Notes under the pieces: model-generated
Told to the model about the DNA's origin: nothing
The model's input: only the letters and a program-made list of their open reading frames with translations
Databases searched by the model: none
Assembly (NCBI RefSeq): GCF_025526975.1
Contig: NW_026515672.1
Span: 124,001-188,000, forward strand
DNA: 64,000 nucleotides
Source of the DNA: Fimicolochytrium jonesii
Lineage: Eukaryota
Reading direction: 5' to 3'
Translations under genes and position numbers: made by a program
Shown: one piece after another, positions 13,334 through 60,317 of the stretch
Layout: the number at the start of each line of letters is the position of its first letter
Numbering within the stretch: the first letter of the stretch is position 1

Positions 13334-14347
13334 TCACGGGTTTTGATGGACCGCTTGTGCTGCCGCCGGGCCCATGTTCGCAGTGTTCGCCCTTCCGTTT
13401 CTGGGTTGGATGATACTGTCGCGTAGTTCCAGTGCTTCAGAGAGTGGGAGCATGGGTGGTATCACATCTTGCAAGAAATTGAGGTCCACGTTGTCTGCCA
13501 CCGCTTTTGCTGCAATTTGTGAGGTGCGTGAGAAGGTGAGGTTGGGCAATGCATCAACCCATCAACAACCATCCACAACCATCAACCCATCCAACCTTCA
13601 ACCACTAACCACTCATCAGGAAACGATATCCTGCTCGCTCCGCTCGCGACGACGATGGGTTGCGGTGAGTGGAGCATAGCTCGCTAAAAGGTCTGACGTG
13701 CGCAAAGGCGCTCGCTATCAGTCGAGCTCCCATCGCAAATCAGAAGGCGTTCGCTCTGGTCGGCCCATCGGTCTCCCAGACCGACCCCAACCCTGCACCT
13801 CGCTTCGCTCGTTGCAGACAGGCCACCATCGCTCGCTTCACGCGCGGCTCGCATGGCTCGCGAACCTCAAGCACTCTCCTCGCTATCGCTCGGAACCCAC
13901 AAGCAATTCTGCTCGCTATCGCTCGGCCCCTCTGGTCGTACTCAAACACCCACCAATATCCCTGTAAGCGATAACCTTCCTTCCGTCGGTCCTAGCGGTA
14001 GCAAAGCTCCTTTCCACAATATATTCCAGAAACATTTCCGTCGCAAGTGTCGTGGCGAAAACCGCGTCGTGTCCCACTCCACCCACGCCTCTGTCTTCTC
14101 TCATGATCGACTTGACGCGTGCTTGTGGGAACGCAGCTTTAATAGTTGTATTTGTGGAGCTGGATGTTGCGGAGGTGGTGGGCATTGTCGAGGAGGATGG
14201 CGGTTCGAGGGCAGGGGTAGAAGAGGCGGAGAGTGGGGAGGAGGACGAGGGTTGTGTGTTGTAGAAGTCGATGGTTGCGCCCGACTGGGAGGGGGACTGG
14301 GAGTGGGACTGGGAGTGGGATTGAGAGTGGGGCTGGGAGACCGGCAT
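13334..14347 (-). CDS. Histone-fold protein of the CBF/NF-YC class (Dpb3/Dls1/CHRAC1-like)
   Basis: FPQARVKSIMRED...AVFATTLATEMFLEYIVERSF...RKVIAYRDI|AKAVADNVDLNFLQDVIP; one 444-nt intron at 13510-13953. Confidence 0.85.
13622..13930 (-). repeat. Intronic GCGAAGC/GCGATAGC-rich repeat family, copy A
   Basis: Reverse complement shares a 29-bp block (28/29) and a 27-bp block (26/27) with the intron at 14859-15220, and shorter motifs with the intron at 56203-56451. Confidence 0.8.
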
Positions 14348-14609: not shown

Positions 14610-15868
14610 ATGGCAGCAGTGTGTATGTACTCACCTCCTTGGCTTCCTGCCTTTCGTCATACGCGACTGACCCTGAATGTCCAACCCTCAGCCGAACCAG
14701 AGCCAGCAGTGATCGAGGACACCCACGGCTCACGCAGCTACAGGCCTTTCAACAGAGGAAATAAGCTCAAGAGAACGATAGAGGAGGCTGAAGGCGCAGC
14801 AACGCTTTCTGGAAGGCCGACAATTTGGACTGTGAGACCGATTGACGAGGAGTTGGAGGTACGAAGCGAGAGCGGAGCGAGCCAAGGCGGATCGTTTAGG
14901 TTTCCGAGGGAAACGAGAGTGCGAGCGAGAGCAGCCTCAACGCGAGCGAAGCGAGGCCCAGGGATGCTTGAGGGTTCCGAGCGATAGCGAGCATACTGCG
15001 CCTAAAGCGCAGGAATGCTTGAGTGCGGCGAGGCCGAGCCTACTGGGCCGGAGACCCAGGGTTGACGATCACACACCGGCCCGACCTCCTTGTCGCGAGC
15101 GGAGCGAGCAGGGTATCGTTCGACCGGCCGCTCCATGTTAATGTTGTTGATGGCTTGATGACTTCATGGTTGATCTTTGATCGTTGATGGTTAACGAACG
15201 GACATGTTTTCTTTATTTAGTACGCCCAAATCGGAAAACGCCGCGCCATCCTCCGCCGCGGCAAAGACCGCTCCACCGAAGACGACCCCTACACAAACGT
15301 CGACATCGAAAGTTAGTACGTCCCCCAAACTCCCCATCCTCCCTCCTCCACATACTCACACCCATTTCCCCTTTCCCCAAACAGAACTCTGGTCCTTCCC
15401 CACCCACATAACCACCGCCGCCGCCACCGCCTCCTTCTCACACACCCTAACCAACCGCGCCTTGAAAGTCCTCTCCCACACCGCGATGGAGATGATGGAA
15501 GCCGAGGCAGATTTCGGGCGGAGTCTGGCGGGGGTTGCGAATGTGTTGCAGGGGGATGATCCGCTTTTCCAGGATGGGGAGATTGAGAAGGTCGTGGGGG
15601 AGGATTTGTTGGCGGAGGTTCGGGGGGATTTGCAGGTATGTGTGTGTCGAGTGCTGCCATTTTCAGGCCCCACACCTATCCGAGGCCATCTCGCTCACGT
15701 CTTGTGTGTTTGAAGGAATTGATGAGCTGCAGCGAAGAGTACATAAAACGGATGAGCGACATGCGGGACAGGCTCTTGTTGGCGTACACGCAGAAAAAGT
15801 CGTTGGCGAAGGAATTGATGCCCGCGAAGAAACCGTTGATTCCGCCACTGCCCGATCTCGACGATTAG
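14610..15868 (+). CDS. RXT2: Rxt2-like subunit of the Rpd3L histone deacetylase complex
   Basis: Spliced product has NRGNKLKR, KRRAILRRG...DDPYTNVDIEKLW and TLTNRALKVLSHTAMEMMEAE, resembling the RXT2 N-terminal domain. Confidence 0.65.
14861..15120 (+). repeat. Intronic GCGAAGC/GCGATAGC-rich repeat family, copy B
   Basis: GAGCGAAGCGAGG, GGGATGCTTGAGGGTTCCGAGCGATAGCGAG and GTCGCGAGCGGAGCGAGCAGGGTATCGTT lie inside intron 14859-15220. Confidence 0.8.
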
Positions 15869-36833: not shown

Positions 36834-38366
36834 CTACGGATGCGTCAATCGACTCTCGTCCCCCCGGTCCTGCCCAAGTTCACCACCTCCTCTCTGCGGT
36901 GAAGACCCGGCGGCCAGGAACTGTTCCTCACTCTCCTGCACGGGCCTGACCCCACCGCCAGCCGTAGCCATCTTCGCCGCCGCAGAAGCCAGGGCAGCTG
37001 TCAAGGCAGCCTGTGCTTGACCGTTAGCTGCGAGTGCTGCCGATAGTGCCGGATTCGCCGCCGCAGCTGCAGCGGCCGCTGCCGCGGCTGCTCCTGGCAT
37101 TCCATTGAGGGCTTGTGCACCTGCAGTGGCTGAAAGGATGCTGGAGAGCAGCGTATCCATAAAGGTTGCCGCTGGACTGGCAAGAAGATGCTGTTGCTGA
37201 TGTCCCGAAATAGGTGAGAGGGCGGGTATAGGTATTGTGTTCGGTGGTGGTGCTGGAGCGATGCGTGGATGCGTTGCAATATGTGGTGATGCCCTTGCAA
37301 GAGCGGACTGCTGCTGCTGTTCTGCCGTTTGTTGTTCGTGCCGTTGCTGCTGTGATTGTTGTTCATTCGAGGCACTCGCACCGCCGTCTGCCTCCGTCTG
37401 GGTGCTCAACCCCGGTATCGGCGGGAATGTCATACTCCGGTAGAGCGCTTCCCTCTCCCCATCCCAATGGTTGATCCGATTTTTCAAATCTACCAGCAAA
37501 GCATCGGAGAGACTCGAAGTAATGTTCGACGGGACTTCCGGATTCGTTGCTCGCTCGATCAACTTTGCGAAGGCGATGCTGCCAAGGGATGTTGGTGCTG
37601 ATGTCGATGGTTGCTCATTCACAGCCGCGCTTTCTTCTGGTAAGCCGGGCTGACCACCCAAGTCCGTGGTTTCAGCCGGCGCTGTTGTTTGTTTCGGCTC
37701 TGTTTCCCCTCCGTCTGGGCGCACAACCTCCATGGCATCCGCGGATGTTCCCGCCTCGAGATCTCTCGATTCCTGCCATAACCCGAAGACGATCTCCTTC
37801 AATCGCTCGTTTTCCGCATGCAGTGTGTCCAAGTCTTTCCTCAGCGCATCTACGACCCTAAAAACCTCCTCGCGCTCTCTCCACCACAGCTCTCTTTCCT
37901 TGATCCGCACATCCCGCTCCCTCGTCAATCTTTCCACTGTGGACCGGAGCTCGCGATGTTTCGCCTCTGATTCGTTCAATTGATGATTTCGATGATCCAT
38001 CAGAGCGGCTTTGTTTTCCAACTCTTTTATGTATCGTTGCTTCCGTTCCCGAAAAGACCGCTGTGCTTGTCTATTCTGCTCGGCACGTTTGACTGAGGAT
38101 GTTCCGGGACAGAGTGCATTCAGCTTGAGGTCATATATCGAAACGCTCTGCACCGACGCTAACCCACCTGCTGCAGAAGGGCTCGCGCTGTCTGGCGTTG
38201 TCGGCGTTGTGGGCATTCCCATTCCTTGGCCTGCTGCTGGCTCCTCCGCAGGTACAGCCGAAGGCGGCTCAGGAGCATTTAAAGCATCTTGAGGGTCTGG
38301 AGAAAAGAAGAGTCAGCTTGGGAGGCTTGCAATACTGACGGTAAGAGGTCAGGACTTACTCATCAT
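36834..38366 (-). CDS. bZIP transcription factor, AP-1/Yap-like
   Basis: KRAEQNRQAQRSFRERKQRYIKELENK plus leucine-zipper/coiled coil; tiny first exon ATGATGA|GTAAG at 38366-38360 spliced in frame to the long ORF. Confidence 0.85.
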
Positions 38367-38899
38367 TAGCGCACGTACAATATGGCGGCTGGACGGGCAA
38401 AGGGATGTGATGTTGAAGACAGGGGTTTTTCAAATCGCAGCAAGATGGCCAAAGTCGGACGGATATGCGTGTGGGAGGGAAGGCAGGGTAAACGCGGATG
38501 TGACAAAAGTCAAGCCAGCTGGCATTAAACTGCATTAAACCTCCTTACTATTCACATGCTTTTGCACAGCATCTCAACCCAGATCTCAACCGGCCGGCGG
38601 TCTGGAGTAGATGTCGAGTTTGGGAAGAACTTCACCGGAGTCCTAGGTGTCGCACAAAGTGAAAAGGCGGGAGGGAACGACGTTACAACATTGAGCTATA
38701 CATGCAGTTGAGAATGCGGCTGGGAAGGGGCTTGAGACTACCATATGCAGTCCTACGAGCGCCTTGGAGGTGTGAGATGCGGGTGGGACGGTGTGGTGAA
38801 CGATAAGGAAAATACTTTGAGAGGTCCAGCCCCTTGTTCAGTCGTACCGGTTATGTACACTCTGAAAACTCTGAATCTTCGATATGCTATGATTTTCAT

Positions 38900-41250
38900 T
38901 CATCCAAATACGTTGAAAAAATCTACTTTTAACTGAGGCACAACTACTACCTTTGTTGGCTCGATGCCTCGATGATGCATCAATCGAGAACGGCCAAATC
39001 GTAAGAGAACGGCTCGTGGGTTGGATGACAAGGCGGCCTCCTGTATCACCGGAGGTAAATGCATAAATGCGCTAATGATGTCGGGATATTGCCGCGGGAC
39101 ATTGTCGGCCCCCCCCCCCCCCACGTCGCTCCAAAATGAGATTTCGATGTCTCGCAGCTCGTCTCCTTCCAGAATAACCTCTACCGCGCGTACAGTGCCT
39201 TATCATCGAGCTGACTTTTCCACCACAGCTCGACGATAGGGGACGGTAGGTCGGCATCCCCGATATCCCAAAAAAAAATCCACCAGATGCACTATGGCGG
39301 CTGTCGATGTCGATGCCGTCGTGGGTCCGCCAGGCTTCTGCGCCCAGAAGCCCACGTCTGACCTGGATCCCCGGGGAGGCAGAACCAGGCCAGCCGAACG
39401 ATTCTGTGCGCGAAGCCAGATCCCGGCGATTCCAAATGTCGTGCCACACCGCCACCTATGGCCAGGCGAAAAATTCAGGGCTCAGATGCTTGCGAACACG
39501 TACAACTGACGGTTCTGCGCCAGGTCGCAGAGAATTCTGTAGTCTTCAGATTGACGACAGGAGTTGGCGGGGTAGCTTTCGGTTCCTCAATTCCGGTGAG
39601 GTCTTAAGTCGTCGATTAGGGAAGGAATCAGTCGGCCGGTCCTTGCACTCACCGCTAAATTCGACAAGCCCCATCTTGTCAGGCGTTTTGGAAGATCTCC
39701 TGAATCGGCAGATGACACCAATACGGTCTTCACAGCCACACCTGAAAGCGGTGGCTGGCCATACCGCCTACGATGTACCCTGCTTCCGGAGACTTCCGGG
39801 CTCGTAGGCTCGGTCGGTTTCAGTGCCGCTCTCCCTCTCCTCCTCGGATTCAGACCCGCTAACCTCCATGGAAATGATTGATGAGTTCATTCTCTCGAGA
39901 GGCGGTTACTGGCCATTTTTCGCCATCGTAAGATCGTAAGAAAAATATCTGCCCTGCTCATCCTGGTATGATGTCAGCGAAGTCATTGAGGAAACCCTTC
40001 ATGAAACCGTTCACCCATACCCATGTTGGAAGCCACAACCGACAGTCCTCATCTATCATCATCTCTCCGTGTCCGTTGTCTTTTGCAGAATTGAAGGGCA
40101 CGATGTGTTCGGCATAGAACTTGGAGACCCACACTCAGCGTCGCTGGGGACGGTGCTCGGGGGCACGGCGTCAGAGCAGTGCACGTCGGGCAGCGCACTT
40201 GCGCCCTCCGGTTGCTGTCGACGACAAACACTCCATTCTCGCCGACGTCTCGCCATATAGGTTGCATGTGAATAGGCGCAGGTCTTTCCTCGTCCGAAAT
40301 CTTGATATCGGGTTCGGCCTTGACGATCCAACGTTGGTAAGCGACGTGATAGGTTCGTTCTCTTGACAATGAACAAAGAACAGGCGGCATCCGTGTACAG
40401 CGCGTGGAAACCTTTCTGCCGGTGATAGTTTTTTACGTCGACGATGTGGAGGTTCATGTATCTGGCTCGAGTTGGTGTCACATGTTGGCGGGCGGGTTCC
40501 GCCATGTGTCCGATACTACCCCTGTTGCAAGTATTGACGCCAGTGAAAACAACGAGTTTACGCTCCTCACCAATTACACCGTCCGTGGTCGAGCAGCAGG
40601 TGGTGTGCGATCGGATTTGAAGAGGCGGAGCGCGGTTCGGAGAGTGTGAGCGCGGTAAGGGCTTATGATTTGGCAGTCGGGGTCGGCGTCGTCGGTTTCA
40701 ATTGCTTCGGTGTTCATTTCGGCGAACAGTTGACAGAGAAGATCCACTTCGAAAGGGTTATAGAGTGAAGTCGGATTTTCGGCGTCGAAGAATTCTCGGT
40801 TATCCCCATAAACTCCGAGGACGGCAAAGCCTCAAAGCCACGCGTCGTTAATGTCTCCAATACTTCCGCCCAAACTGATTCGTACCGACCGTGCTCGATG
40901 GGGTCCGGGTGCGCCATTCTTCTTGCAGAGCTGGTGTCGCCTTCATTCGTGTTTTGAAGATTTCGTAGTTGTCCGTTCAGGAAGAGGTAAATGATCCTGT
41001 TGGGCACACTCGCGGCCCAACCGACGGGGCCGCCACTGAAGCTGTCAATCCCACCAGCTTTGCGGCTTCCTCAGGGCCCCCAACTTGTTCTGCCAATAGT
41101 TCTTTGGGCAGCCCGAGAGATATCCCCTTCGACTCCATTGCCCTAAGCCTTTCAGAAGCAAGGATGTCGGAGGTCGCTGCACTCCTCATGGCACCCATGA
41201 CTAACACTAAATATTGGTGTTCTATGTTCCATGTGAAGAGGGAAGGGGGA
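38900..41250 (-). pseudogene. Decayed coding-like fragments within the accessory island
   Basis: Several protein-like minus-strand stretches broken by stops and frameshifts; no recognisable family. Confidence 0.35.
39977..40180. repeat. ~200-bp imperfect direct repeat, copy 1 (copy 2 at 42841-43041)
   Basis: Shared blocks such as CCCATGTTGGAAGCCACAACCGACAGTCCTCA.CTATCATCATCTCTCCGTGTCCGTTGTC and GGGGGCACGGCGTCAGAGCAGT. Confidence 0.9.
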
Positions 41251-41259
41251 AGGGGGAAC

Positions 41260-42825
41260 TCATGTTTTCCTCTTCTTGGCTGCCCTTCCCGCGTCAGCCT
41301 GCCTCTTCTTCGCCACACCCTCCGCGATCTTTCTTGCTTGGGCTTCGTCGAAATCGGGAAAGGTGTTTTGCTCCAGAGCGACCTGCTCGAGGCACAAGGC
41401 GATCGCAGAAGTGCACCCGCGTTTGTGACCGCCGAAGCGGTTCCACAAACCCCACTCGGGCTGGCCGTCGATCGAAGATACGTAGAAGGCAACCCTCCCA
41501 GCCTCGGTGGCGCAGGTCAAGTTGCGAGGGACGTACGCCTGAGGATGGTGTTCCCCGGCAGGCGCGATCTCGACCCGTACGATGCAGGCCCGCAGGTCCT
41601 CCCAAGCGGATTCCGAAAGCTGCTCCAGCACCTTGTCCTTGAACAGAGTTGCTTTCGTATTCCACAGCGTGTATTGGCGGCTCGCTTTCGTCGGGCCGCT
41701 TTTCGTGAGGACCTCCCGATGGCCGATCTTGTATTGGTCGAGCTTCTTGAGCCGCTCTTCGTGCGCATGAAGCGCGAATCCACGAAGGGCGTTCAGGAAG
41801 CCTTCGGTTGCTTGATCGGGGTGGTCGTGGAACCACGAGGAGAGGCTGTCCAGGCCGAGATCGCTGAGTTCTCGGTGGGTCCTTTGGGAGGACAGTCCCC
41901 GCCTCGCTTGATGCTCCGGCAAACTCGACCAAGCCGCCATTGCCAGGGAGTCATTGAGCCCAAGGTAGGGGCCATCGGAGAGGTCGAGTCCGGCGGCGGC
42001 AGCAGCAGCATCGACCGCTGCGCTCCGGTAAAAGCGGCCGATGACTTGGACGGCCGTTTCGAGGACGAGGACCTCGCCGTCGGAGAGCGACTTGGCAGGG
42101 AACGCGGCGACTCTCTTGACGGTCATCCTTTCCACGTCGACCTCGTGGCATCTTCGGTACGTGGCCTGGTCCTTGCGCTTACGGTACGCGGGGCTCAGAT
42201 GCTCGTTGGCGCGGTGGACGAGGCCGCGCTTGCCGGTAGCAGAACCAGCGTAACCGTGGTTGCCTCGAGGCACAAAGACGTAGAGACCCCACCCCTTGTG
42301 CTCCCACGAGACGGCTGGCAGGCCGGCGCCGTTGGTCGGGCAGCCGGCGGCAAAAAACGAACGACCCGCATCGTCGAGGAAGGCGTCCAGCTTGGTGGCG
42401 ATGGCGTTGGAGACGACATCGTCGTCGGTCTCTTGGATGGTCGCACCGCCGGTCAAGACGGCGACGACGGCGGGCTCGTGCGGGGATTGTTCTGCACGGA
42501 CAAGGGCTCGCAAGGTCTTGATGGCCTTGGCGGCACAAAGACGTAGACACCCCACCCCTTGTGCTCCCACGAGGGGCGGCAGGCCGGCGCCGTTGGTCGG
42601 GCAGCCGGCGGCAGAAAACGCACGACCGGCATCGTCGAGGAGGGAGTCGATCTTGGTAGCGATGGCTTCGGAGACAGCTTCGTCGTCGGTTTCTTGATTG
42701 GTAGCACCGCCGGTCAAGACGGCGACGACGGCGGGCTCGTACGGGGATTGTCCGGCGCGGACAAGGGCCCGCAAGGTCTTGATCGCCGTGGTCAAAACGA
42801 CGAAAGCAGCGGATGGCGCTGACAT
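41260..42825 (-). CDS. Intronless GIY-YIG-like endonuclease with a duplicated N-terminal module
   Basis: WGLYVF (motif I), GYAGSA (II), HRANEH (III), VLE (IV) and YLGLN (V) occur in GIY-YIG order; basic NLS-like C-terminus AKKRKT. Confidence 0.65.
   Translation of the reverse strand: MSAPSAAFVVLTTAIKTLRALVRAGQSPYEPAVVAVLTGGATNQETDDEAVSEAIATKIDSLLDDAGRAFSAAGCPTNGAGLPPLVGAQGVGCLRLCAAKAIKTLRALVRAEQSPHEPAVVAVLTGGATIQETDDDVVSNAIATKLDAFLDDAGRSFFAAGCPTNGAGLPAVSWEHKGWGLYVFVPRGNHGYAGSATGKRGLVHRANEHLSPAYRKRKDQATYRRCHEVDVERMTVKRVAAFPAKSLSDGEVLVLETAVQVIGRFYRSAAVDAAAAAAGLDLSDGPYLGLNDSLAMAAWSSLPEHQARRGLSSQRTHRELSDLGLDSLSSWFHDHPDQATEGFLNALRGFALHAHEERLKKLDQYKIGHREVLTKSGPTKASRQYTLWNTKATLFKDKVLEQLSESAWEDLRACIVRVEIAPAGEHHPQAYVPRNLTCATEAGRVAFYVSSIDGQPEWGLWNRFGGHKRGCTSAIALCLEQVALEQNTFPDFDEAQARKIAEGVAKKRQADAGRAAKKRKT
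42269..42792. repeat. Two-copy tandem duplication (~261-263 bp) inside the GIY-YIG ORF
   Basis: Units begin GGCACAAAGACGTAGA at 42269 and 42532; the protein repeats AIKTLRALVRA.QSP.EPAVVAVLTGGAT.QETDD...LDDAGR.F.AAGCPTNGAGLP. Confidence 0.92.
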
Positions 42826-42840
42826 GTCTGAAGGTTGAAC

Positions 42841-43041
42841 GCGAAGTCAGTAAGGAAACCATTCATGAAACCCGTTCATCCCCATGTTGGAAGCCACAAC
42901 CGACAGTCCTCACCTATCATCATCTCTCCGTGTCCGTTGTCCTTTGCGGAACTGAAGGGCATAATGTGTTTGGCGTTCCACAACCCATCCGCGACACCCA
43001 CACCCCGGCGACGGTGCTGGGGGGCACGGCGTCAGAGCAGT
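42841..43041. repeat. ~200-bp imperfect direct repeat, copy 2
   Basis: Matches 39977-40180; on the minus strand it overlaps an intron-like segment GTGAGG...ACTGAC...CAG (42913-42828) directly before the GIY-YIG ATG. Confidence 0.9.
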
Positions 43042-43204
43042 CCAAGCCCGCGATCTTGGGAGAGAATAGACTGCACTGCAAGGACGCCGGAAAGTAGGAT
43101 CATTCTGCAAATTCTGTTCGTTGGTCATGGTGCCTTATCGCATGGCAGACATGAGGCGTGCGTAGGCAGAGGCTTCCCCAGGAATTGATTTGCGCTCGAA
43201 AATG

Positions 43205-43453
43205 GTGGTCCCATGAGACGGCAGGGAGACCAGCACCGTCGTTAAGGCTTCCTGCAACGAAGGAGGCCCCACCAGTCGCGTCTACATAGTCCATCCAGAC
43301 CCCGTCTTGTTTGCGCTGGGTTTTTCCCTTCCCCATCTGCAGAACTGCGTCAGGACGTCGGGATCTTGGTCAGCGGGATCAGCGCGCGCGAGCTGTACGC
43401 ATGATCTTGACGGCGTGGGTAAGAACAACTGAGGCAGAAGAAGGAGCGGACAT
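43205..43453 (-). pseudogene. Frameshifted paralogous fragment of the GIY-YIG ORF N-terminus
   Basis: MSAPSSASVVLTHAVKIMR vs MSAPSAAFVVLTTAIKTLR; YVDATGGASFVAGSLNDGAGLPAVSWDH vs FLDDAGRSFFAAGCPTNGAGLPAVSWEH. Confidence 0.75.
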
Positions 43454-43843
43454 CGTTGTCATTGTCGTATTCGACGAAATGCCGGATCGCCATCGCTTCT
43501 CGGCAGGGGGCGCGTGTGTGCTGACGGCCATGATGAAGACCGTGAAGACGAAAACAGAGATGAGGTGATGGCGTCCAGGTCAAGGCGTCGACGATGGTGG
43601 AGAAGTAGGTAGGCTGCTGATGAGACGACGGCACAGCTGGACATCCATCTGTGACAAGAAATCGATTATTGATGGTGACTCCATGTGGTGTAACTCATTC
43701 CTCATTGGAATGAACTTGCGGGGGGAAGAGCGAGAGGGGCACACATGTGGGTGGTACGGCATGCGGGTTTGGATGTCGTAAGAATTAATTAATTCACAAT
43801 CCAACGTTGCAGCATTCCTGGAGACAACTAGCCGAGAACGATA

Positions 43844-43945
43844 GCAGCGATGGCCGAGTGGTTTAAGGCGTTTGACTTAAGTGGCACTTAACTTAAGTAT
43901 TCAAATACACGCAAGTGTGCGTGGGTTCGAACCCCACTCGCTGCA
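43844..43945 (+). tRNA. tRNA-Leu (anticodon TAA) with an ~18-nt intron
   Basis: Acceptor stem GCAGCGA/TCGCTGC, A box TGGCCGAGTGG, anticodon stem TTTGA/TCAAA with CT-TAA-G then the intron, long variable arm ACACGCAAGTGT, T arm GTGGG-TTCGAAC-CCCAC, T-run Pol III terminator at about 43960-43965. Confidence 0.93.
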
Positions 43946-44913
43946 TTCCGTAGAAGATGTTTTTTGCCTTTTCCTGGCTCATTTTTGGCAGGCCTGACCC
44001 ATCCTGCCGACAACCAACCCGTCTTCTACATATATAAACCTTCATGCTCTCGGAATACTCAAGTCAAGTGCCACTTTTCGTCACACGCCTTAACCACTCG
44101 GCCATCGCTGCTATCGTTCTCGTCTAGTCGTCCGAGGGCTGGCGCGGCAGCCTTCGCCAACGGGATTTCTGGTGACAGCGTTGCCAACGCCGCTGTCGCC
44201 CCGCCGTTCCCGAAGAAACAGTCCACGCCGTCCGCTTATGGACAGAAGTCGAAGCCGATACGCTTGTGAACACAGCGAGCGCATTCCTGTCTGTACGTAG
44301 TGTTGAGGACGTTCTTATCCACCTTGCTTTCACGGTGGCTATTGCGGCATGTTGCATATCGCCTCCGTCTCGAAGCGACATGTTTGAACTACTGTCAGGC
44401 GCTGTTGAAACTTGAGAGCGAGTGAAGCAATTAATTAACCCACTTATAATGGGGGCGGGCGAATGCGTCTCTCATCAAACCCCACTCCCATGTCGTCTCT
44501 CTCGCTCTCGCTCACAAACACCACACAACCTTCGCCGCAAACCTCGATTTCCCACGCTCTCAGACCACCCTCAGTTCTCTCCCGCACCGACTCACAGCCT
44601 ACGGTAAGTGCCATACTACGGGCTCAAGCTAGTCCCTCTCCTGTTTGTCCCTTCCCAGTTTCCCTCCTGACTGTTGTTGTCCCCCGAACACATGTTTCCT
44701 CCCACTACTTGCAAACCCCCCCAACTCGCAATCCCTCCCGTTACACCCTCCATCCTTCACCACCCTACCACCTACCCACTCTCGTCCCCTTATGTGAACC
44801 AATCAACCCTCCCGCTACAAAATCTCTCCCACAACCATGTCCTTTTATCCCCAAAAGTCAGCGATAAAGCCTAACCGATAAACCACAACCCCCCCCTTCC
44901 TCTTTTGGCCACG

Positions 44914-46302
44914 ATGAGCAAGACCCCTCCAGATGCGCCGTCCCCGGACCGGAAACGCTCCCTGGAAGCCGAAACCTCCTCCGACGAAGACGACGAACGC
45001 GGCGGCCGGTACAAGCGTCAGGCGATCAGTGTAGACGATAAGGCCGGGAACGATGCGGATAAGCCGCAGCCCGTGCCTGTGTCTGCGGACTCGAGGGCCA
45101 GATCTACCGGTGGATCGTTTAGTGTGAAGGAAGAGGAAGATGCGGTTGGAGCCTCCGTTTCTGATGAACTGGCGGGTGGGGCGGATGTCAAGAGAGAGGC
45201 GAACGGAAAGTCGGAACCGATATACCCGACGGCAGGCTCGCAATCGAACGTCCAAGTCGCCGCACCCGCCCCACGCCCCGACAAGGAGTTCCGCATGCGC
45301 GCGCTCATCTCCACCCGCGAAGCCGGGATCATCATCGGCAAGCAGGGCCGCAGCATCAACGACATCCGCAACCAATCCGGCGCAAAAGTCCAGATCTCCG
45401 ACCACATCCCTAACGCGCAAGACCGCATCCTCATGATCACGGGCCTAATGGACCAGATCTCCAAAGCCTTCTCCCTCGTCGCCGGCAAAATGGTCGCTGA
45501 GCTGCAGGACAACAGCGATATCCCCTTATCGCAGCGCTTGACAGAGATCCGCCTCCTCGTTCCGAACCAGATGATGGGCTGGCTCATCGGCCGACAATCA
45601 CAGAACATCAAGGAAATCATGCACAACTCCTCCGCGCAGATCCAGGCCGCTAGCGGGTCCTTGCCCAACTCCACGGAACGCGTCGTCAGCGTCGTGGGTG
45701 TAGTCGACGCCATCCATCTCGCGAGTTACCATATCGGCGTCTCCCTCCAAAACCACCGCGACGAGATCCGTGGATTCGTGCCCTATGTCCCCTTCGCGCC
45801 GATGAACCCGGCCGCGTACATGGGCGGCGCCGACGCACGCGGGATGGGCGGACCGGGCGGACCAGGCGGGTACGGCGCCCCGATGCCCTACGGATTCCCC
45901 GGCGCCCCCTTCATGCAGCAAGGCGGGCACCCCCACCACCCCCACCAACAACACCCTGCCCACATGATGCAACAACAAGCCGCCGCGTACGGGTACCCCC
46001 AAGGCATGCCCGGCGGCCCTCCCCCCGGCGGGCCCCCCAACAACGGCGCTCCAAACGGCCCCTCCCAGATGGTCCAGATGTACATCCCGAACGACATGGT
46101 CGGCGCGGTGATCGGCAAACAGGGCGCGCACATCAACGAGATCCGGCTGGCGAGCGGGTGCAAGATCAAGATCATGAGCGCGGATCGCAATAGCACAGAG
46201 ACGCTGGTTACTGTTACGGGCGCCCCCGAGGCGAACCAGATGGCGCTGTATATGCTTTATACGAGGTTGGAGAGTGAGAGGGCGAGGATGCAGGTTAGGT
46301 GA
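44914..46302 (+). CDS. Triple-KH-domain RNA-binding protein (Pbp2/Hek2/Rnc1, hnRNP K/PCBP-like)
   Basis: Three KH repeats: AGIIIGKQGRSINDIR, MGWLIGRQSQNIKEI, VGAVIGKQGAHINEIR. Confidence 0.92.
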   Translation: MSKTPPDAPSPDRKRSLEAETSSDEDDERGGRYKRQAISVDDKAGNDADKPQPVPVSADSRARSTGGSFSVKEEEDAVGASVSDELAGGADVKREANGKSEPIYPTAGSQSNVQVAAPAPRPDKEFRMRALISTREAGIIIGKQGRSINDIRNQSGAKVQISDHIPNAQDRILMITGLMDQISKAFSLVAGKMVAELQDNSDIPLSQRLTEIRLLVPNQMMGWLIGRQSQNIKEIMHNSSAQIQAASGSLPNSTERVVSVVGVVDAIHLASYHIGVSLQNHRDEIRGFVPYVPFAPMNPAAYMGGADARGMGGPGGPGGYGAPMPYGFPGAPFMQQGGHPHHPHQQHPAHMMQQQAAAYGYPQGMPGGPPPGGPPNNGAPNGPSQMVQMYIPNDMVGAVIGKQGAHINEIRLASGCKIKIMSADRNSTETLVTVTGAPEANQMALYMLYTRLESERARMQVR

Positions 46303-46823: not shown

Positions 46824-49091
46824 CTATTTCTTCAAAAACCCAAACATGCCCTTCCCCTCCTTAACCACCTGCGGAGCCAACGCCGGCATCCCCGGATTCT
46901 CCTCCCTCAACTCCCTCAACCGTTCCTCGGCCCTCTTCTCCCCCCTCCCGCTTGCAAGCTGATACCACACCACCGCCTTCTCCAAACTCTTTTGGCATCC
47001 GATCCCGGCCTCGCAAAAGAACCCGATGGCGTATTGGGATTCGGCGTGGTTTTGTTTGGCCGCCCGGTACGTCCAGGCGTAGGCTTCGGATTCGTTCTTG
47101 GGGACGAGGGGGGGGAAGCCGTGGAGGTACCAGCCCGCCAGGACGAATTGTGCCTCGGGGTGCCCGTGTTCGGCGGCGCGGCCGTACCAGTACAAGGCTG
47201 CTTGCTGTTGTGTGGAGGGGGGGGGGGGGGGGGGGGTCAGCATGTGCTCAGAACTCCATGGGGTGTCCTTCATAATAACGGTTGACAACTTCAAACGTCC
47301 ACATACCAGATCCTTAGCACACCCCAACCTCCCAAACTCATAACAGCTCGCCAACACATTCTGCGCCGGCGGATACTCCAACTCACTCGCCTCCTTATAC
47401 AGCCCCAACGCATACCCCTCATCCTGCTGAATATGCGGCGGCACGCCCTCCTCATATATCTTCGCCAGCTCATACAGACACTCCGGGTGCTCCGTATCCG
47501 CCACAGCTGCACCGCGCTTGAACCACATGACCGCTTTCCGGACATCGCGTTTGGTGCCAAGGAGACCCTGGTATTCGATCATCCCGAGCCGGTATAGGGC
47601 GGGGCGGTAGCCGGCTTGTGCGGATTTGGTGTAAAAGTCCATGGAGATCTTTGTGGATTTTTTGGTGCCGGCGCCTTTTTCAGAGAGGACGCCGAGGAGG
47701 TACATGGCGCCCGGGTGGGAGCGTTTGGCGGCGGCGAGGAGTTGGGGGTGCGCGAGGGTGTATTGGGTGTCTTCGAAGTAGGCTTGTCCGAGTGTGAACT
47801 GAAAGGAATCATACTGCATCAGCAGTGCTACAATGTCCTCATTTCGCAAAAATGGTCTCACCATGGCATCCGGATTCCCCGCCTTGCTAAGCTCCTTCAG
47901 CAGCGCAAACGCCTCCTCGCTCAGCTTATCCTTCAACGCATTATCCGTCGTCTTCCCACTCTCATCCAACAGATACTTTGCGAAATCAAACCTCAGCCGG
48001 TCATCCCCGCTCTTCAAAGCGTTCATTCTGTACATCTCGAGCGTTTTCTCGAGAGAGACTTTGGAGACTTTCGAGCCTGATTGCTGCTGTTGATTCCCTG
48101 CCGCGTTGGGTTTGGGTGGTGGGCCATTTGGCCGTTTCACGGAGTAGCTTCGAAACGTTGGTTTGGGCCCCTCTGGAGGCGGCCCACTGATTTCCATACT
48201 CGACAGGGCTTCGGAGAGCCGCAGACTGTCCGTTGACTCGCTACCAGAGTCAACTGCTTCTGAGTGCGCATGGGAGGGTATCGACGGGTTAGACGACGGT
48301 CTGGAAAGACGGGCCGAGTTCCCGCTGAGCCTTTGTTGATTGAGATTCTCGGCAGATACTGATGACGGTCTCGATCCACTGACGCCGGGCGATAAGCTCG
48401 AGTTCGAATGCGCAGATCGTGGGCCATCCCGATCCGGATGTAGCGCTTGGTTCGGGGAAAGTCGATGGTTTGCTGGTGGTGGAGGACGGCTCATATGCGC
48501 TGGATGTGGTTGGGCCGGCTGCGGTTGTCCCGGATGTGCTTGTCCCGGATGTGGCTGCCCAGGATGCATAGGCGGCCTCATGTATTGCGCTGGATGCATT
48601 GGAGGAGGCCCGTTAGGATCATAATAACGGTCTGCCAGTGGTGGCGCGCCATAACCTGGCCCTTGCGGCGGTGGAGGTCGAGCATACTGGGGTCGTGGGT
48701 GATATGCTCCATTTGGTGGTGGCGGCCCGTACGGCTGCCCATGTGGTGGACCATGTGGCGGTCCGTAAGGCGGCCCTTGCGGTGGTGGGCCGGGGTAATG
48801 ATGTGGGCGTTGTTGTTGCTGCTGCTGCTGAAACTGCGGTGGTGGTGGGCCGGGTCTGTATTCCATAGGCGGCCTTCCCGGGGCGTGTGGCTATTGAATT
48901 GAACCAGTAAGGAGCTGGAAAAGTGAATGCAGATACGGGTCTGCCAAACTTACCTGCGCATATTGCATTGGTGGGCCATGGTTAGAATACAAAGCAGAAC
49001 TTGCTGATGGCGGAGCCTGCTGGGGGCGGTGGTGTTGGGGTTGAGGAGCCTGAGAAAACCCCCCAGCGGGGTCCCGTTCCTGCTCAGACAT
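46824..49091 (-). CDS. Sel1-repeat protein, chitin synthase activator Chs4/Skt5-like
   Basis: Pro/Gln-rich N-terminus, LEMYRMNALKSGD..RFDFAKYL, multiple SEL1 repeats (AVMWFKRGA, CYEFGRLGC, LAGWYLHG, SQYAIGFFCEAGIG). Confidence 0.8.
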
Positions 49092-55120: not shown

Positions 55121-55852
55121 GGCTCTACTCTACTTAAGTCGTTGCTTGTGGGGGGGGTAAGAGAGGGGGCAAGAGCTGCGAAGGTGGCCAGCAAACACCC
55201 GTGCCCAGATCCAAAGCATGCATGACACGCCGCACTTTGGAGAGAGTGGAGTCGTGGACACGGACACGCTTGTGGGTGGTGACTCATCACCCATCGACAA
55301 TTTCGAGATGGAGACGACATCCATATGGGACAAGTGGCAGGAAACCAACGCAATCATATGCTCTCCTTTTTTGGTCCGAGATGGGGAGAGAGCTCTAGTT
55401 GAGAAAACATACGCTCCCAAGCTATCCCTCCCGCGATGCAACTCCCAGCTCAATCGAGACCAGCCGCTATACAATAATAAGGGGAGCATCCATGTCCGGC
55501 GTCTCGAGTAGGTCGGCGGGGCACGTGCCAAAAGCCAAAGCGGTTGTCGCGCCGAGGAGGAGGGAATGATGATTGGCATGTGCTTGCTTGTTCCCTCTCG
55601 CGATCTCGTACAGACGCTCGCTCGCTTGCCGTTTTTAGACCGTCAACCCCCCACGCACGCCGTCGTTTTCACCCCCCCCCCCCCCCCCCCCCCCAACCAA
55701 CCAACTGCCTGCAGCTCTTATCAAAAAGAAACCCCTGTAACTTTCTTCACCCCCCCACGCACGACTATATACGCGCTTATCCCGTTTCGCTGCACTTTCC
55801 CACGCTCAACGACCCACCGCACGCATATCCACAGCCCCATACCTTCCGCACA

Positions 55853-57643
55853 ATGGCCACCCCAGCGCCGCCAACTGGACCCGACCGAGGCGTAGTCTCC
55901 ACCAACGTCGCTTCCACCTCCACCACCACCTCCTCCTCGCAATCAATGACCTCCACAGCCCTCGACAACGTCAGCTCCACTTTCACCAACTTGATCTCCA
56001 GAGGTCGGAAAGCCACCATGCCTTCCGTCGACTGGAGGGAGATACCTCAACCGGTGCCCCTAGTCAAAGTCGTATCGCAACCGAGTGCGCCTGGATCGAA
56101 TTCTATCAAATATGTCGCGACTGGGATCACCCCGCAGGCTGAGCAGATTCTATCGCAGCTGCCTGTTCCGCTTCATATCGTCGCTTTTACTGGGTTTGGA
56201 AGGTGAGTCCGAGCCATGTGAGGCCGAGCGGAGCGAGACCGAGCGAAGCGAGGGGATGCTTGAGGGTTCCGAACCCAACTGGGCCGGTGCGAAGCGAGGC
56301 ACACGAATGCTCTTGAGGATTCCGAGCGATAGCGGAGCGCGAGGTCTGCTCGCTTCATCGGAGGATCGGAGACACTTCGCGCAGAGTGCATGGGACAGTT
56401 TTCGCTCGCTTCAAAATGGATACTTATGTTTACCTCTTTTCCTCTTTTCAGATCAGGGAAGTCGTTTACGGCATCGAAAGTGCGACAACACATGACTGGA
56501 AACGAAGATCACAAATTCACGAGTGCTCCTGGGAACGTTCCGTGCACACACGGCATCGACATGATTGTTTTCGAGAATCCACGAGGACCCGGTACTATCG
56601 TCTTTCTGGATTGCGAAGGAGGAGCGAATCACAATCAATCAGCGTTACCATTCGTTATTGGGTTGGCTGCTCGGTTGTCGACCAGGATGTACGCATTTGA
56701 GCGGGGATGCTTCACGACGGGAGGGTTGGACACGGTCATGCAGGTTATCAATATGGGGCATGCAACCAGCGCGGATGAGGTGGACATAACCCGGCAGCTG
56801 GTGCTCGTGGAGAACATGTCGATAAATGGAGATATCCCAGACCGACGGCTCTTAGATGATCTGCTGTGTGAAGAGGATGGGGACGAACAGACGAATCGCG
56901 TGAGGAAACTCATTCGCGAGAGATTCGACGTGAGCTTTGCGAAGCTACCCTTCACCATGCCCGGCAACCAGCACCTATTCCTCGAATCGGTCGCGACACT
57001 GGCAGACACACTAGGGGACTCGCTGACCCCTTTCGTTGTCGGCGGCGTGCCAGTAGACGGACCCGTAGTAGTCCAGCTCATCAGCGAGCTCCTCGCACAG
57101 ATCCGCGACGGTGGAAACCGGTTCAACATGGTCTCTGCAACCGAAGCCCTCGTCGCAAACATGGCCTCAGAAGCCGCCAACTCCGTCTGGACCGATTTCA
57201 TCGCCAAAGTCCGCAAACAGGGCAACCACCCCGTCCAAATCACCGGCCGCAAACACCTCCGCACCATCCTCCGCGAAGTCGAAGGCGCCGCCAACCTCTG
57301 TCTCAACGAACTCGAATCTTTCACCTCCAAACTCGTCCCGAACGAACCCGCCGCCATCGCGAAATCCACCTGGGACAGGAACTACCGCAACTTTGAGATG
57401 GACATCCGCGCGGCACATAAACGTAAAGCGGACGATCTGGCGAAATATACCCAGTGGGCGGACCGCGTTAACCGCATTGTAAGCGAGATTGTGGCACAGG
57501 TGGTGGAGGCGATCCGACAGTTTATTCGATTTGCACGGTTTTCGACGAGTTTGGTGCTGATGAGCAATTACTACTTTTGGAGGAGCTCGTTCAATATCGC
57601 GACGGGGATTGCGCAGGGGGTCATTACCGGTGTCACGTCTTGA
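55853..57643 (+). CDS. GBP/atlastin-type (GB1/RHD3) large GTPase
   Basis: G1 IVAFTGFGR|SGKS split by intron 56203-56451; G2 PCTHGI; G3 FLDCEG; helical C-terminal region. Confidence 0.8.
56209..56412 (+). repeat. Intronic GCGAAGC/GCGATAGC-rich repeat family, copy C
   Basis: GAGCGAAGCGAGGGGATGCTTGAGGGTTCCGA (56241-56272) and CTTGAGGATTCCGAGCGATAGCG (56312-56334) match the blocks in copies A and B. Confidence 0.8.
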
Positions 57644-58022: not shown

Positions 58023-60317
58023 TCACCTCCCGCTCCCAACCCCATTCAAAGCCCCCCTACTCCCCCTCGCGCTCCCCGCCCCCCCACCGCCGATCTCCGG
58101 CAACTTATTATACCGCTGCTTCAACGGGATCCTCCCCCCCGTCACCGCGATCCGCGACGACGTGGACGATGAGGACGATGTGGTGCTTGTAGTGTAAGCG
58201 GAGTCTTTGAGCTTGAGTTTCAGGTCGAGGGCCTTATCCAGCAGCTGGATTTTCCGATCGAGGTGGAGGGTTGATGAGAGGGCGTGGAGGAGAAACGGGG
58301 GAGAGCAGAGGGAATGGAGAGAATAGAGAACGGTACCTGGAGTTTCTGGGCACGTAACGCCTCGTTCTCGTGCTGGAGTTTGGCGCACCGCTCTTCGGCG
58401 TGCCGGAGGGCGTCGTTGGATGCCTATGGGGTGGGGGGGGGGGGGGGGGGGGGAGTGGTGCGTAGATGTTGGTGATGTTGCTCGCCCTCGCAGGAAGGAC
58501 AACCCCCATTGCGAACGGCAGGTCCCTTTGCTACATCATCATTTTTCGTCCATCTATTTGTCCTCTGCCATCCTCTCGCACAGCCCCCCCTCTCACCATC
58601 CCTCCCCGTCCCCAAAACGAATCCGCAAACTTCCCAGAAAAACGTCCCTTACCAACTTCGCTTCCGCCTCCTCCAGCTTGTTCCTCAGATACCCCAACGT
58701 AGTCGTCAGATCCTGCACCTCCTTGAACAGCGCCCGTTTCTCCAGCGTCGCGGTCTCGTAGTCTTGCGTGAGTCGGGCGTTGGCGGCGGTTAGGTGGTCG
58801 ATCTGGGCGGCTTGCTGCGTTTGGAGGGTTAGGCGAGATTGGAGCTGCCGGGGGGAGGGAACATCAGTTTTTATTTTGTCATTTGCGGGCAGAAGCTATG
58901 GGAACTGGTTATGTATGCTTTTATGTATGGGGGAGACTGCACACACCTCTGCGTTTTCCCGATTGAGTGCGTCCAATCTGACTTCCAGCGCCCGTAAGAT
59001 ATCCAATGTGGGGTCGGTCCCGTCCGCTGATGTCGCGCCGCCGCGGGTGTACATCAGCGTATGCGGTTGCGTTCTTTCGTCGGGGTTTGTGGCTGAGAGG
59101 GCGTCCATGGAGGTTGAGGATGTGCTGGTTAGGAGGTCAGCGGAGGGGAGGGATCCGGTAAGATGCGGTGTCTGCTCATGGTGGTCGAAATTAGATGCGA
59201 GGTTGGGATTCTCGGGGCCGGTACTCGATTCTATCTGCTGTGATATCTCAATCGGCGGTGGGTCCAATAGCGCAGAAATGTCTGGGCAGCTCGGGGCGTA
59301 CTCCAAAGCCCGTTGTGATATGAGCTTCGGCGCATCTGCACCTTGTAAGGCCTCTGGAGCTCGGGCGTCTCCTCCATGTTCCAATGCCTCATAAGAGGTG
59401 TCCTCATATCCAGGTACGGGTGCACTCTCGGTCGCTTCTATTCCTGTCACATGAGGAATGGCTTCAACATCCTCAGAAGCCAGCGCCTCGATCCCGTTTG
59501 GGTGCACTGGCTCATCGATCTCCACCGCTTGCGCTCCATCTCCCGCCGCCGGCTGCTCCCCCGCCTCATTCACAGCTGATGGTTCAGCCAGGTCTGAAGA
59601 GCTCTGTGGTGCGTTTTGCGGTGCTTCGGCTTTGTTTGGCTCCAGCCCCTCTTTTGTGGCCTTTTCCTGAGATTCAGAAGGAGCCTCCCCTGCCCTATCC
59701 TCATCCCGGCTTTTCCCATCAACATTTACGTTCTCCGCATTTGCGGTTGCTCCCCCACTCTCCACTGTGGGCCTCTCCGCAGTTTCCGCCGCCGTTGCTT
59801 CCGCCTCTCCAGCATCAGAATAGACCCCGGTACCATCCTCCCCATCGTCATCATTTATCAGATCCGATGATGCCTGGTCCTCATCTCGATCCACGACATC
59901 CAGACCTGCAGACGACTCACTCGATCCTGCTTCCTGTAACGGGACCTCCCCGGAGACAATCGCCTGTGCATCTTCTGTATTCTCATTCGACCCCTCAACC
60001 GGAAATTCATCGTGCCTTGTCGGGAGACCAGCAGGATCTCGTTCCGCACCGGATCGCTGTTCCACCAGAGCGTCTGATTCCCGTGCATCGCCGCTATCCA
60101 GACCACCCGTCTCCCCACCCTCCTGGCTCTGATCATTCAGCACCGGCGGCTGCAAATGTCCTCCAGACCCATCTTCCTCAGCGCGGCCAGGCGTGTGAAG
60201 ACGACTCGAGTCTGCATCCGTCGGGTCGCCGTCCGCGTCTGCGCCTGCTTTGTCGTCGTTCGCGGCGTAGTCGTCGTCAAGCGGTTGCGACGGTGCTGCC
60301 GAATGGGTATCCGTCAT
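58023..60317 (-). CDS. Uncharacterised protein: long acidic disordered N-terminus plus C-terminal coiled coil
   Basis: Long Asp/Glu-rich ORF followed by spliced heptad-rich exons (ILRALEVRLDALNRENAE, LLDKALDLKLKLKD). Confidence 0.6.

Follow-up and report, generated by a model that had tools for sequence, protein, structure and literature searches.

An unusual island in the nuclear genome of the chytrid fungus Fimicolochytrium jonesii (Spizellomycetales, Powellomycetaceae in the NCBI classification) is best explained, with a probability that we put at roughly 55%, by a lineage-restricted nuclear gene for a GIY-YIG nuclease, the locus of which has been remodelled by local partial duplications and the position of which next to a tRNA gene is incidental. 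The stretch of DNA analysed, hereafter the window, comprises 64,000 nucleotides (nt) of nuclear DNA (positions 124,001 to 188,000 of contig NW_026515672.1, assembly GCF_025526975.1), and all coordinates given below are those of the window. The gene is represented by an open reading frame (ORF) of 521 amino acids (aa) on the minus strand, the product of which has, as judged from conserved motifs and structural models, a well-supported predicted GIY-YIG fold. The gene is likely to be low in copy number within a locally duplicated locus, with no evidence of movement obtained in this analysis, and the repeated sequences around it are likely to represent remnants of local partial duplications rather than the ends of a mobile element.

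The gene is already catalogued at NCBI, where it is uncharacterised. The 521-aa ORF is 100% identical to the 'uncharacterized protein' EV422DRAFT_353275 (538 aa) of F. jonesii, located on a 1.22-Mb contig, and the 17 extra residues of this 538-aa model stem from a short upstream exon (42962-42914). Splicing of this exon to the ORF across an intron of 86 nt yields a translation equal to the public protein (P0001). The gene model is composed of the following parts:

41260-42827, minus strand: main exon with the 521-aa ORF from the ATG at 42825, stop codon at 41260-41262 included (ORF list, NCBI protein match and splice reconstruction)

42828-42913, minus strand: intron of 86 nt with GT..AG borders in the public model (splice reconstruction)

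42914-42962, minus strand: coding part of exon 1, 49 nt, encoding MPFSSAKDNGHGEMMI plus the first base of D (public model and splice reconstruction)

An original prediction, made from the letters of the window without database searches, had described an intact and intronless ORF of 521 aa. Intact it is, as the frame runs uninterrupted at 41260-42825 on the minus strand; intronless applies to the ORF itself and does not apply to the public 538-aa model with its 49-nt coding exon and 86-nt intron. The public protein record furthermore carries the precomputed Pfam accession PF27238.1, and part of the F. jonesii protein may already be covered by this curated family; a literature search found no mention of PF27238.

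The assignment to the GIY-YIG nucleases, equally part of the original prediction, is supported by motif conservation in an alignment of eight family sequences and by matches of the predicted fold to I-TevI and UvrC. In the GIY-YIG superfamily, the GIY motif and the YIG motif are carried by neighbouring strands, at a distance of approximately 10 residues. The paired motifs of the ORF read GLYVFVPRGNHGYAG, with the G, Y, Y and G columns invariant in 8/8 family sequences, and the full set of columns invariant in all eight sequences consists of G-x-Y, Y-x-G, G, R, H, Y and G-L, R66 and H70 included. By eye, the Glu (in LVLETA) and the Asn (in GLND) are present in 7/8 family sequences, with P0004 of Phlyctochytrium arcticum having lost both positions. 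The Arg/His pair, this Glu and this Asn are what we take to be the catalytic positions of a GIY-YIG enzyme. Two regions of the protein can be delimited:

41926-42294, minus strand: predicted GIY-YIG catalytic core, approximately aa 178-300, with the order GLY..YAG..R..H..E..GLN (family columns, AlphaFold2 models and fold match to I-TevI)

41263-41868, minus strand: C-terminal helix/strand region, approximately aa 320-521, conserved in the family and ending in a basic KKR...KKRK tail (alignment and predicted secondary structure)

AlphaFold2, run on the shallow family alignment, gave a mean predicted local distance difference test (pLDDT) score of 67 for a model of residues 140-521 (382 residues) and of 60 for residues 160-305. 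In the 382-residue model, the secondary-structure elements follow one another as beta-beta-alpha-beta-alpha, as they should in a GIY-YIG domain, and strands 41-47 and 53-57 carry the motifs. As a structural comparison by VIA with this model was swamped by long-helix matches, with I-TevI and EndoII the only non-helical matches, the catalytic domain was folded alone. With the domain model, 15 of 48,161 PDB representative chains reached Z>=2, and the first nine rows were all GIY-YIG-fold proteins, headed by the catalytic domain of I-TevI (1ln0_A, Z 7.5, root-mean-square deviation 3.0, 89 of 92 residues aligned). The N-terminal domain of the plant glutaredoxin AtGRXS16, which we take to adopt the GIY-YIG fold (Z 6.3), the N-terminal domain of UvrC (6.2) and T4 EndoII (5.2) occupied rows two to four, followed by R.Eco29kI (4.5), PD-T4-3 (4.4), At-HIGLE (3.3) and two Slx1 entries (2.6 and 2.5). 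Equally, the top 10 Foldseek matches of the domain model were all GIY-YIG domains of UvrC or I-TevI (E 0.2-1.4); Foldseek with the 382-residue model returned no row at E<=0.001.

On the level of sequence, the family stands apart. Pfam, NCBIfam and PHROGs identified no significant family in the ORF, and Pfam identified none in any of the eight family members; the best Pfam match of the ORF was the GIY-YIG-clan family DUF123 (E 0.012-0.017, 16-17 bits vs a cutoff of 25). Searches of PDB sequences with the single sequence and with the profile gave 0 matches. The ESM Atlas, queried with residues 170-521, provided leads only, namely Ascomycota hypothetical proteins (0.91) and a bacterial GIY-YIG cluster (0.87). 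For the C-terminal approximately 200 residues, neither VIA nor the ESM Atlas gave a fold or family match. The protein ends with KKRQADAGRAAKKRKT, a candidate nuclear import signal.

Around the gene, pieces of the gene itself are found. The direct repeats of approximately 200 bp, placed about 2.86 kb apart by the original prediction, are real: blastn aligns 39977-40183 with 42841-43044 at 81% identity over 214 columns (E 1e-50), far beyond chance, and the ungapped blocks are 91-92% identical with a spacing of 2861-2864 bp. Together with two further duplicated segments, they are listed here:

42841-43044, minus strand: gene-adjacent direct repeat, made up of exon 1 with some sequence upstream of it and the larger part of the intron (blastn, copy alignment and splice reconstruction)

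39977-40183, minus strand: distal direct repeat, in which exon 1 and the intron recur in decayed form (blastn and copy alignment)

43160-43453, minus strand: pseudogene stub, a decayed copy of the N-terminal module with the translation MSAPSSASVVLTHAVK...AGLPAVSW, which opens with MSAPSS (tblastn, DNA alignment and translation)

42269-42791, minus strand: internal tandem duplication of approximately 261 nt (87 codons), with the units 42532-42791 and 42269-42530 being 89% identical (self-comparison and blastn)

The gene-adjacent repeat extends from approximately 80 nt upstream of the exon-1 ATG to 13 nt short of the 3' end of the intron. The distal repeat is situated 1076 bp past the stop codon, with the ATG changed to GTG and the splice donor GT changed to AT. 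Since the two repeats coincide with exon 1 plus intron and with a decayed copy thereof, they are pieces of the gene and not the termini of an element. The ORF is indeed bracketed by repeats, as had been stated, in a geometrical sense; the suggestion of element ends was lost once the near repeat was identified as exon 1 with most of the intron and the far one as its decayed copy. No TIR (terminal inverted repeat) at the repeat ends and no shared flanking duplication of the kind left by a target-site duplication (TSD) were seen by eye on the alignment of the two copies, and the rest of the 64-kb window contains no further occurrence of either repeat. After the distal repeat, no gene-related sequence was detected by tblastn or blastn, by the family hidden Markov model (HMM) on the six-frame translated window or by DNA alignment; a second full gene copy after the distal repeat and a repeat copy upstream of the stub were both sought and neither was found.

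Starting at an ATG of its own, the stub (43453-43160) reproduces the first approximately 300 nt of the ORF, and two stops interrupt its frame; it is supported by tblastn (E 1e-4 and 0.021) and by a DNA alignment score of 21 vs a shuffle maximum of 16. From the decayed fragments mentioned in the original prediction, this single stub on the minus strand is retained, and the family HMM against the six-frame 64-kb window showed no other gene fragment. Beyond the stub and the partial repeats, blast and the family HMM equally showed no other copy of the nuclease gene within the window. Inside the gene, the beginning of the GIY motif recurs out of frame at the end of the upstream unit of the tandem duplication, as 'SWEHKGWGVYVFVP' in the ORF 42453-42707; this copy also appears as a weak match in the family HMM scan of the six-frame window.

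A tendency towards partial tandem copies is not confined to this locus. To count relatives, HMMER was run exhaustively on 1.84 billion representative proteins; at E<=0.001, it recovered seven proteins, the query's own and six others, all from Chytridiomycetes. Besides the query, the members belong to P. arcticum (2), Geranomyces variabilis (2, plus 1 cluster member), Geranomyces michiganensis (1) and Blyttiomyces sp. JEL0837 (1). A second family protein of F. jonesii was not among these HMMER matches, and a single-protein scan of metagenome contigs found no relatives. P0002 and P0004, both of P. arcticum, are encoded on one contig of 381,795 bp with accession numbers 5 apart, and P0002 contains three cores, each of N-terminal module plus GIY domain, in one 922-aa model; P0003 and P0008 of G. 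variabilis contain an extra partial core. By its alignment, the family is prone to partial tandem copies, and it constitutes a small, chytrid-restricted branch of the GIY-YIG superfamily. Literature searches on GIY-YIG in fungal transposable elements and in chytrids brought up no nuclear GIY-YIG element of chytrids in the part of the literature that they returned.

At the other end of the island stands a tRNA gene, followed by an incomplete copy of itself:

43844-43945, plus strand: tRNA gene with intron and long variable arm (Rfam RF00005, 53.9 bits)

44053-44132, minus strand: inverted partial tRNA copy, with 21 nt of 5' flank and the first approximately 59 nt, 89% identical to 43823-43902 on the plus strand (self-comparison and blastn)

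The tRNA gene, the sole one called by Rfam, is encoded on the strand opposite to the nuclease ORF. Its existence, claimed as tRNA-Leu in the original prediction, was confirmed by Rfam, and the anticodon loop, together with the long variable arm, suggests Leu(UAA) when read by eye. With this, the layout given in the original prediction holds for the most part. ARAGORN did not call a tRNA at 43844-43945, probably because of the approximately 21-nt intron. The inverted copy is located 107 nt downstream of the intact tRNA gene, on the side far from the island; it breaks off in the intron/3' anticodon-stem region, has an altered anticodon region and was not called by Rfam.

From these observations, a scenario can be drawn for a resident nuclease gene. 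The GIY-YIG core would cut and the C-terminal domain would bind nucleic acid, in a modular plan as in I-TevI-type enzymes, and the basic C-terminal tail might mediate entry of the protein into the nucleus. At the locus, birth and death of gene copies could proceed by unequal recombination or replication slippage, with the neighbouring tRNA gene perhaps favouring duplications and its adjacency otherwise being incidental. tRNA genes are fragile, recombination-prone sites, and this fragility could explain both the local duplications and the inverted tRNA fragment.

Several points weigh against this scenario. As a rule, GIY-YIG enzymes in which binding is assigned to a domain of its own, apart from the catalytic one, are selfish homing enzymes. 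At the locus, remnants of the gene lie on either side of its intact version, next to a conserved gene, and the locus is situated 390-800 bp upstream of a tRNA gene that has an odd inverted partial copy of itself. Cycles of invasion and loss would be in keeping with a chytrid family that is tiny and patchy and shows signs of decay (P0004; P0002 and P0003 with their truncated cores). Since copy number was assessed on annotated proteins, repeat-masked or unannotated genomic copies are invisible to the searches. A word-based protein search of 90% clusters retrieved the protein itself as the sole match; this search is weak, and since even with the family alignment it recovers 2/8 members, it was not used for counting relatives. 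With respect to the fold, the models are of modest confidence (pLDDT 60-67), and no Pfam, PDB-sequence or Foldseek match of the nuclease reaches significance.

The main rival, though an unlikely one, is a selfish gene for a homing endonuclease that stands free in the genome, in the manner of the Seg genes of phages or the WHO elements of yeasts, whereby empty alleles would be cut at or near the tRNA-Leu gene, repair would copy the gene in and repeated homing would build the array of partial copies. In its full form, as a nuclear free-standing GIY-YIG homing gene of chytrids that cuts empty alleles beside tRNA-Leu and creates the partial-copy array by repeated homing, we consider this explanation rather doubtful. 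With the I-TevI-type homing endonucleases (phage T4 I-TevI and Seg), the chytrid protein shares the predicted beta-beta-alpha-beta-alpha core, the Tyr/Tyr/Arg/His/Glu/Asn pattern and the modular plan with a separate downstream domain, and the I-TevI catalytic domain is the best structural match of its core model. The predicted fold with its separate C-terminal domain, the very small and patchy family with decayed and partial copies, the two P. arcticum members close together on one contig and the remnants around the intact gene are all compatible with homing. On the other hand, the chytrid protein differs from the I-TevI type by the absence of significant sequence similarity, by an extra N-terminal helical module ahead of the core and by a C-terminal domain without detectable match, and its gene resides in a fungal nuclear chromosome and not in a phage or an organelle intron.

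A precedent for homing in a nuclear setting is provided by the WHO elements of Torulaspora and Lachancea, which, in the available part of their description, are likewise free-standing nuclear endonuclease genes beside a conserved host gene amid gene and pseudogene remnants (PMC7282813). As reported there, each homing event replaces the 3' end of FBA1, the target gene of the WHO elements, and repeated homing builds clusters of genes and pseudogenes next to the target (PMC7282813). WHO proteins are described as intein-like LAGLIDADG-zinc finger proteins and not as GIY-YIG enzymes, and WHO clusters hold displaced fragments of the target gene (PMC7282813), whereas the chytrid island contains no tRNA fragment. 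Such displaced fragments would be expected upon homing of the WHO type; blastn-short of the tRNA and its flanks against the window found none inside the island (38900-43800) and gave only the inverted copy beyond the tRNA, matched at 44053-44128. Furthermore, the remnant nearest to the tRNA is the most decayed piece and not the newest, and the codon usage of the gene is host-like, both of which speak against homing.

The chytrid gene shares with cellular GIY-YIG nucleases (UvrC N-domain, Slx1, At-HIGLE, AtGRXS16 N-domain) the predicted fold and the chromosomal, host-like nature of the gene; the cellular enzymes are universally conserved, whereas the chytrid family is confined to a few chytrids. 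Slx1 carries a RING/zinc finger and UvrC a C-terminal half, and Pfam finds neither of the two in the chytrid protein. Penelope-like retroelements bring a GIY-YIG nuclease domain into eukaryotic nuclear genomes; they are defined by a reverse transcriptase (RT) fused to the nuclease, whereas no RT is found in the chytrid ORF or in the 18 other ORFs of the island.

The island lies in the interval between a bZIP and a KH gene (38223-44904), and Pfam assigns the nearest neighbours to ordinary fungal genes:

36834-38222, minus strand: bZIP factor gene

44905-46302, plus strand: gene for a protein with three KH domains

46824-48866, minus strand: gene for a Sel1-repeat protein

The codon score of the 521-aa ORF (0.173) is within the range of eight host genes (0.076-0.305), with the other island ORFs scoring <=0.009 and being non-coding-like, and its GC content at third codon positions (0.74) is inside the range of host ORFs (0.50-0.79); codon usage and composition of the nuclease gene are host-like. 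An ORF of 525 aa at 40969-42546 on the plus strand, antisense to the GIY-YIG ORF, was rejected as a gene; with a codon score as low as 0.033, compared with 0.173 on the sense strand, it has most likely arisen as a side effect of the high GC content of the sense frame. In line with the original prediction of an island devoid of RT, transposase and recombinase motifs, Pfam identified no such family in the 521-aa ORF and no family of any kind in 18/18 other island ORFs (E<=0.01).

An improbable further origin, for which the hints are weak, is the endogenisation of a viral GIY-YIG endonuclease gene, taken over from a giant virus or from some other virus that infects zoosporic fungi. Viral GIY-YIG endonucleases, those of giant viruses included, dominate the weak rows of a BFVD comparison, and F. 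jonesii JEL569 has been reported to possess just one giant-virus capsid gene, on a contig of host-like character (PMC13533422). Against a viral source stand the absence of BFVD matches at E<=0.001, of PHROG matches and of any viral protein among the seven HMMER matches, equally the host-like composition and codon usage and the ordinary fungal neighbours (bZIP, KH, Sel1). Least probable of all is the mobile element of the original prediction, a transposon-like unit bounded by direct repeats of approximately 205 bp that would encode a GIY-YIG nuclease only and insert repeatedly at tRNA 5' flanks: the flanking of the ORF by repeats with a spacing of 2861 bp, the tRNA gene 800 bp from the nearer repeat and remnants suggestive of more than one insertion or duplication first recommended it, and it is contradicted by the identity of the repeats as exon 1 and intron with a decayed copy, by the lack of TIR and matching flanking duplication in the alignment as judged by eye, by the absence of the repeat from the rest of the 64-kb window and of any Pfam integrase, transposase or RT in ORF or island, by the single annotated family protein in F. 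jonesii, by host-like codons and by the location of the other tRNA piece outside the island, and to our knowledge a GIY-YIG nuclease alone has no strand-transfer chemistry.

As a separate observation, short repeats of 32-58 nt with 81-94% identity are dotted across the window, at 2632-2670, 2911-2947, 55669-55705 and 58429-58462, and further at 13871-13925 with 14943-14999 and at 14946-14989 with 56289-56334. These scattered sequences may be low-complexity or small dispersed repeats.

The resident nuclease gene of F. jonesii adds a small, uncharacterised and chytrid-restricted branch to the GIY-YIG nuclease superfamily, and its locus suggests that local partial duplications are able to mimic the termini of a mobile element. 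Among eukaryotes, homing genes that stand free in the nuclear genome are a great rarity. Should the gene nevertheless be a homing gene, it would be the first known case in which a GIY-YIG enzyme takes the part that WHO proteins have in yeasts, and selfish genes of eukaryotic nuclei would gain a new class. Should the family turn out to be selfish, such a GIY-YIG gene beside a tRNA gene would provide a new natural site-specific nuclease and a gene-drive model in early-diverging fungi.

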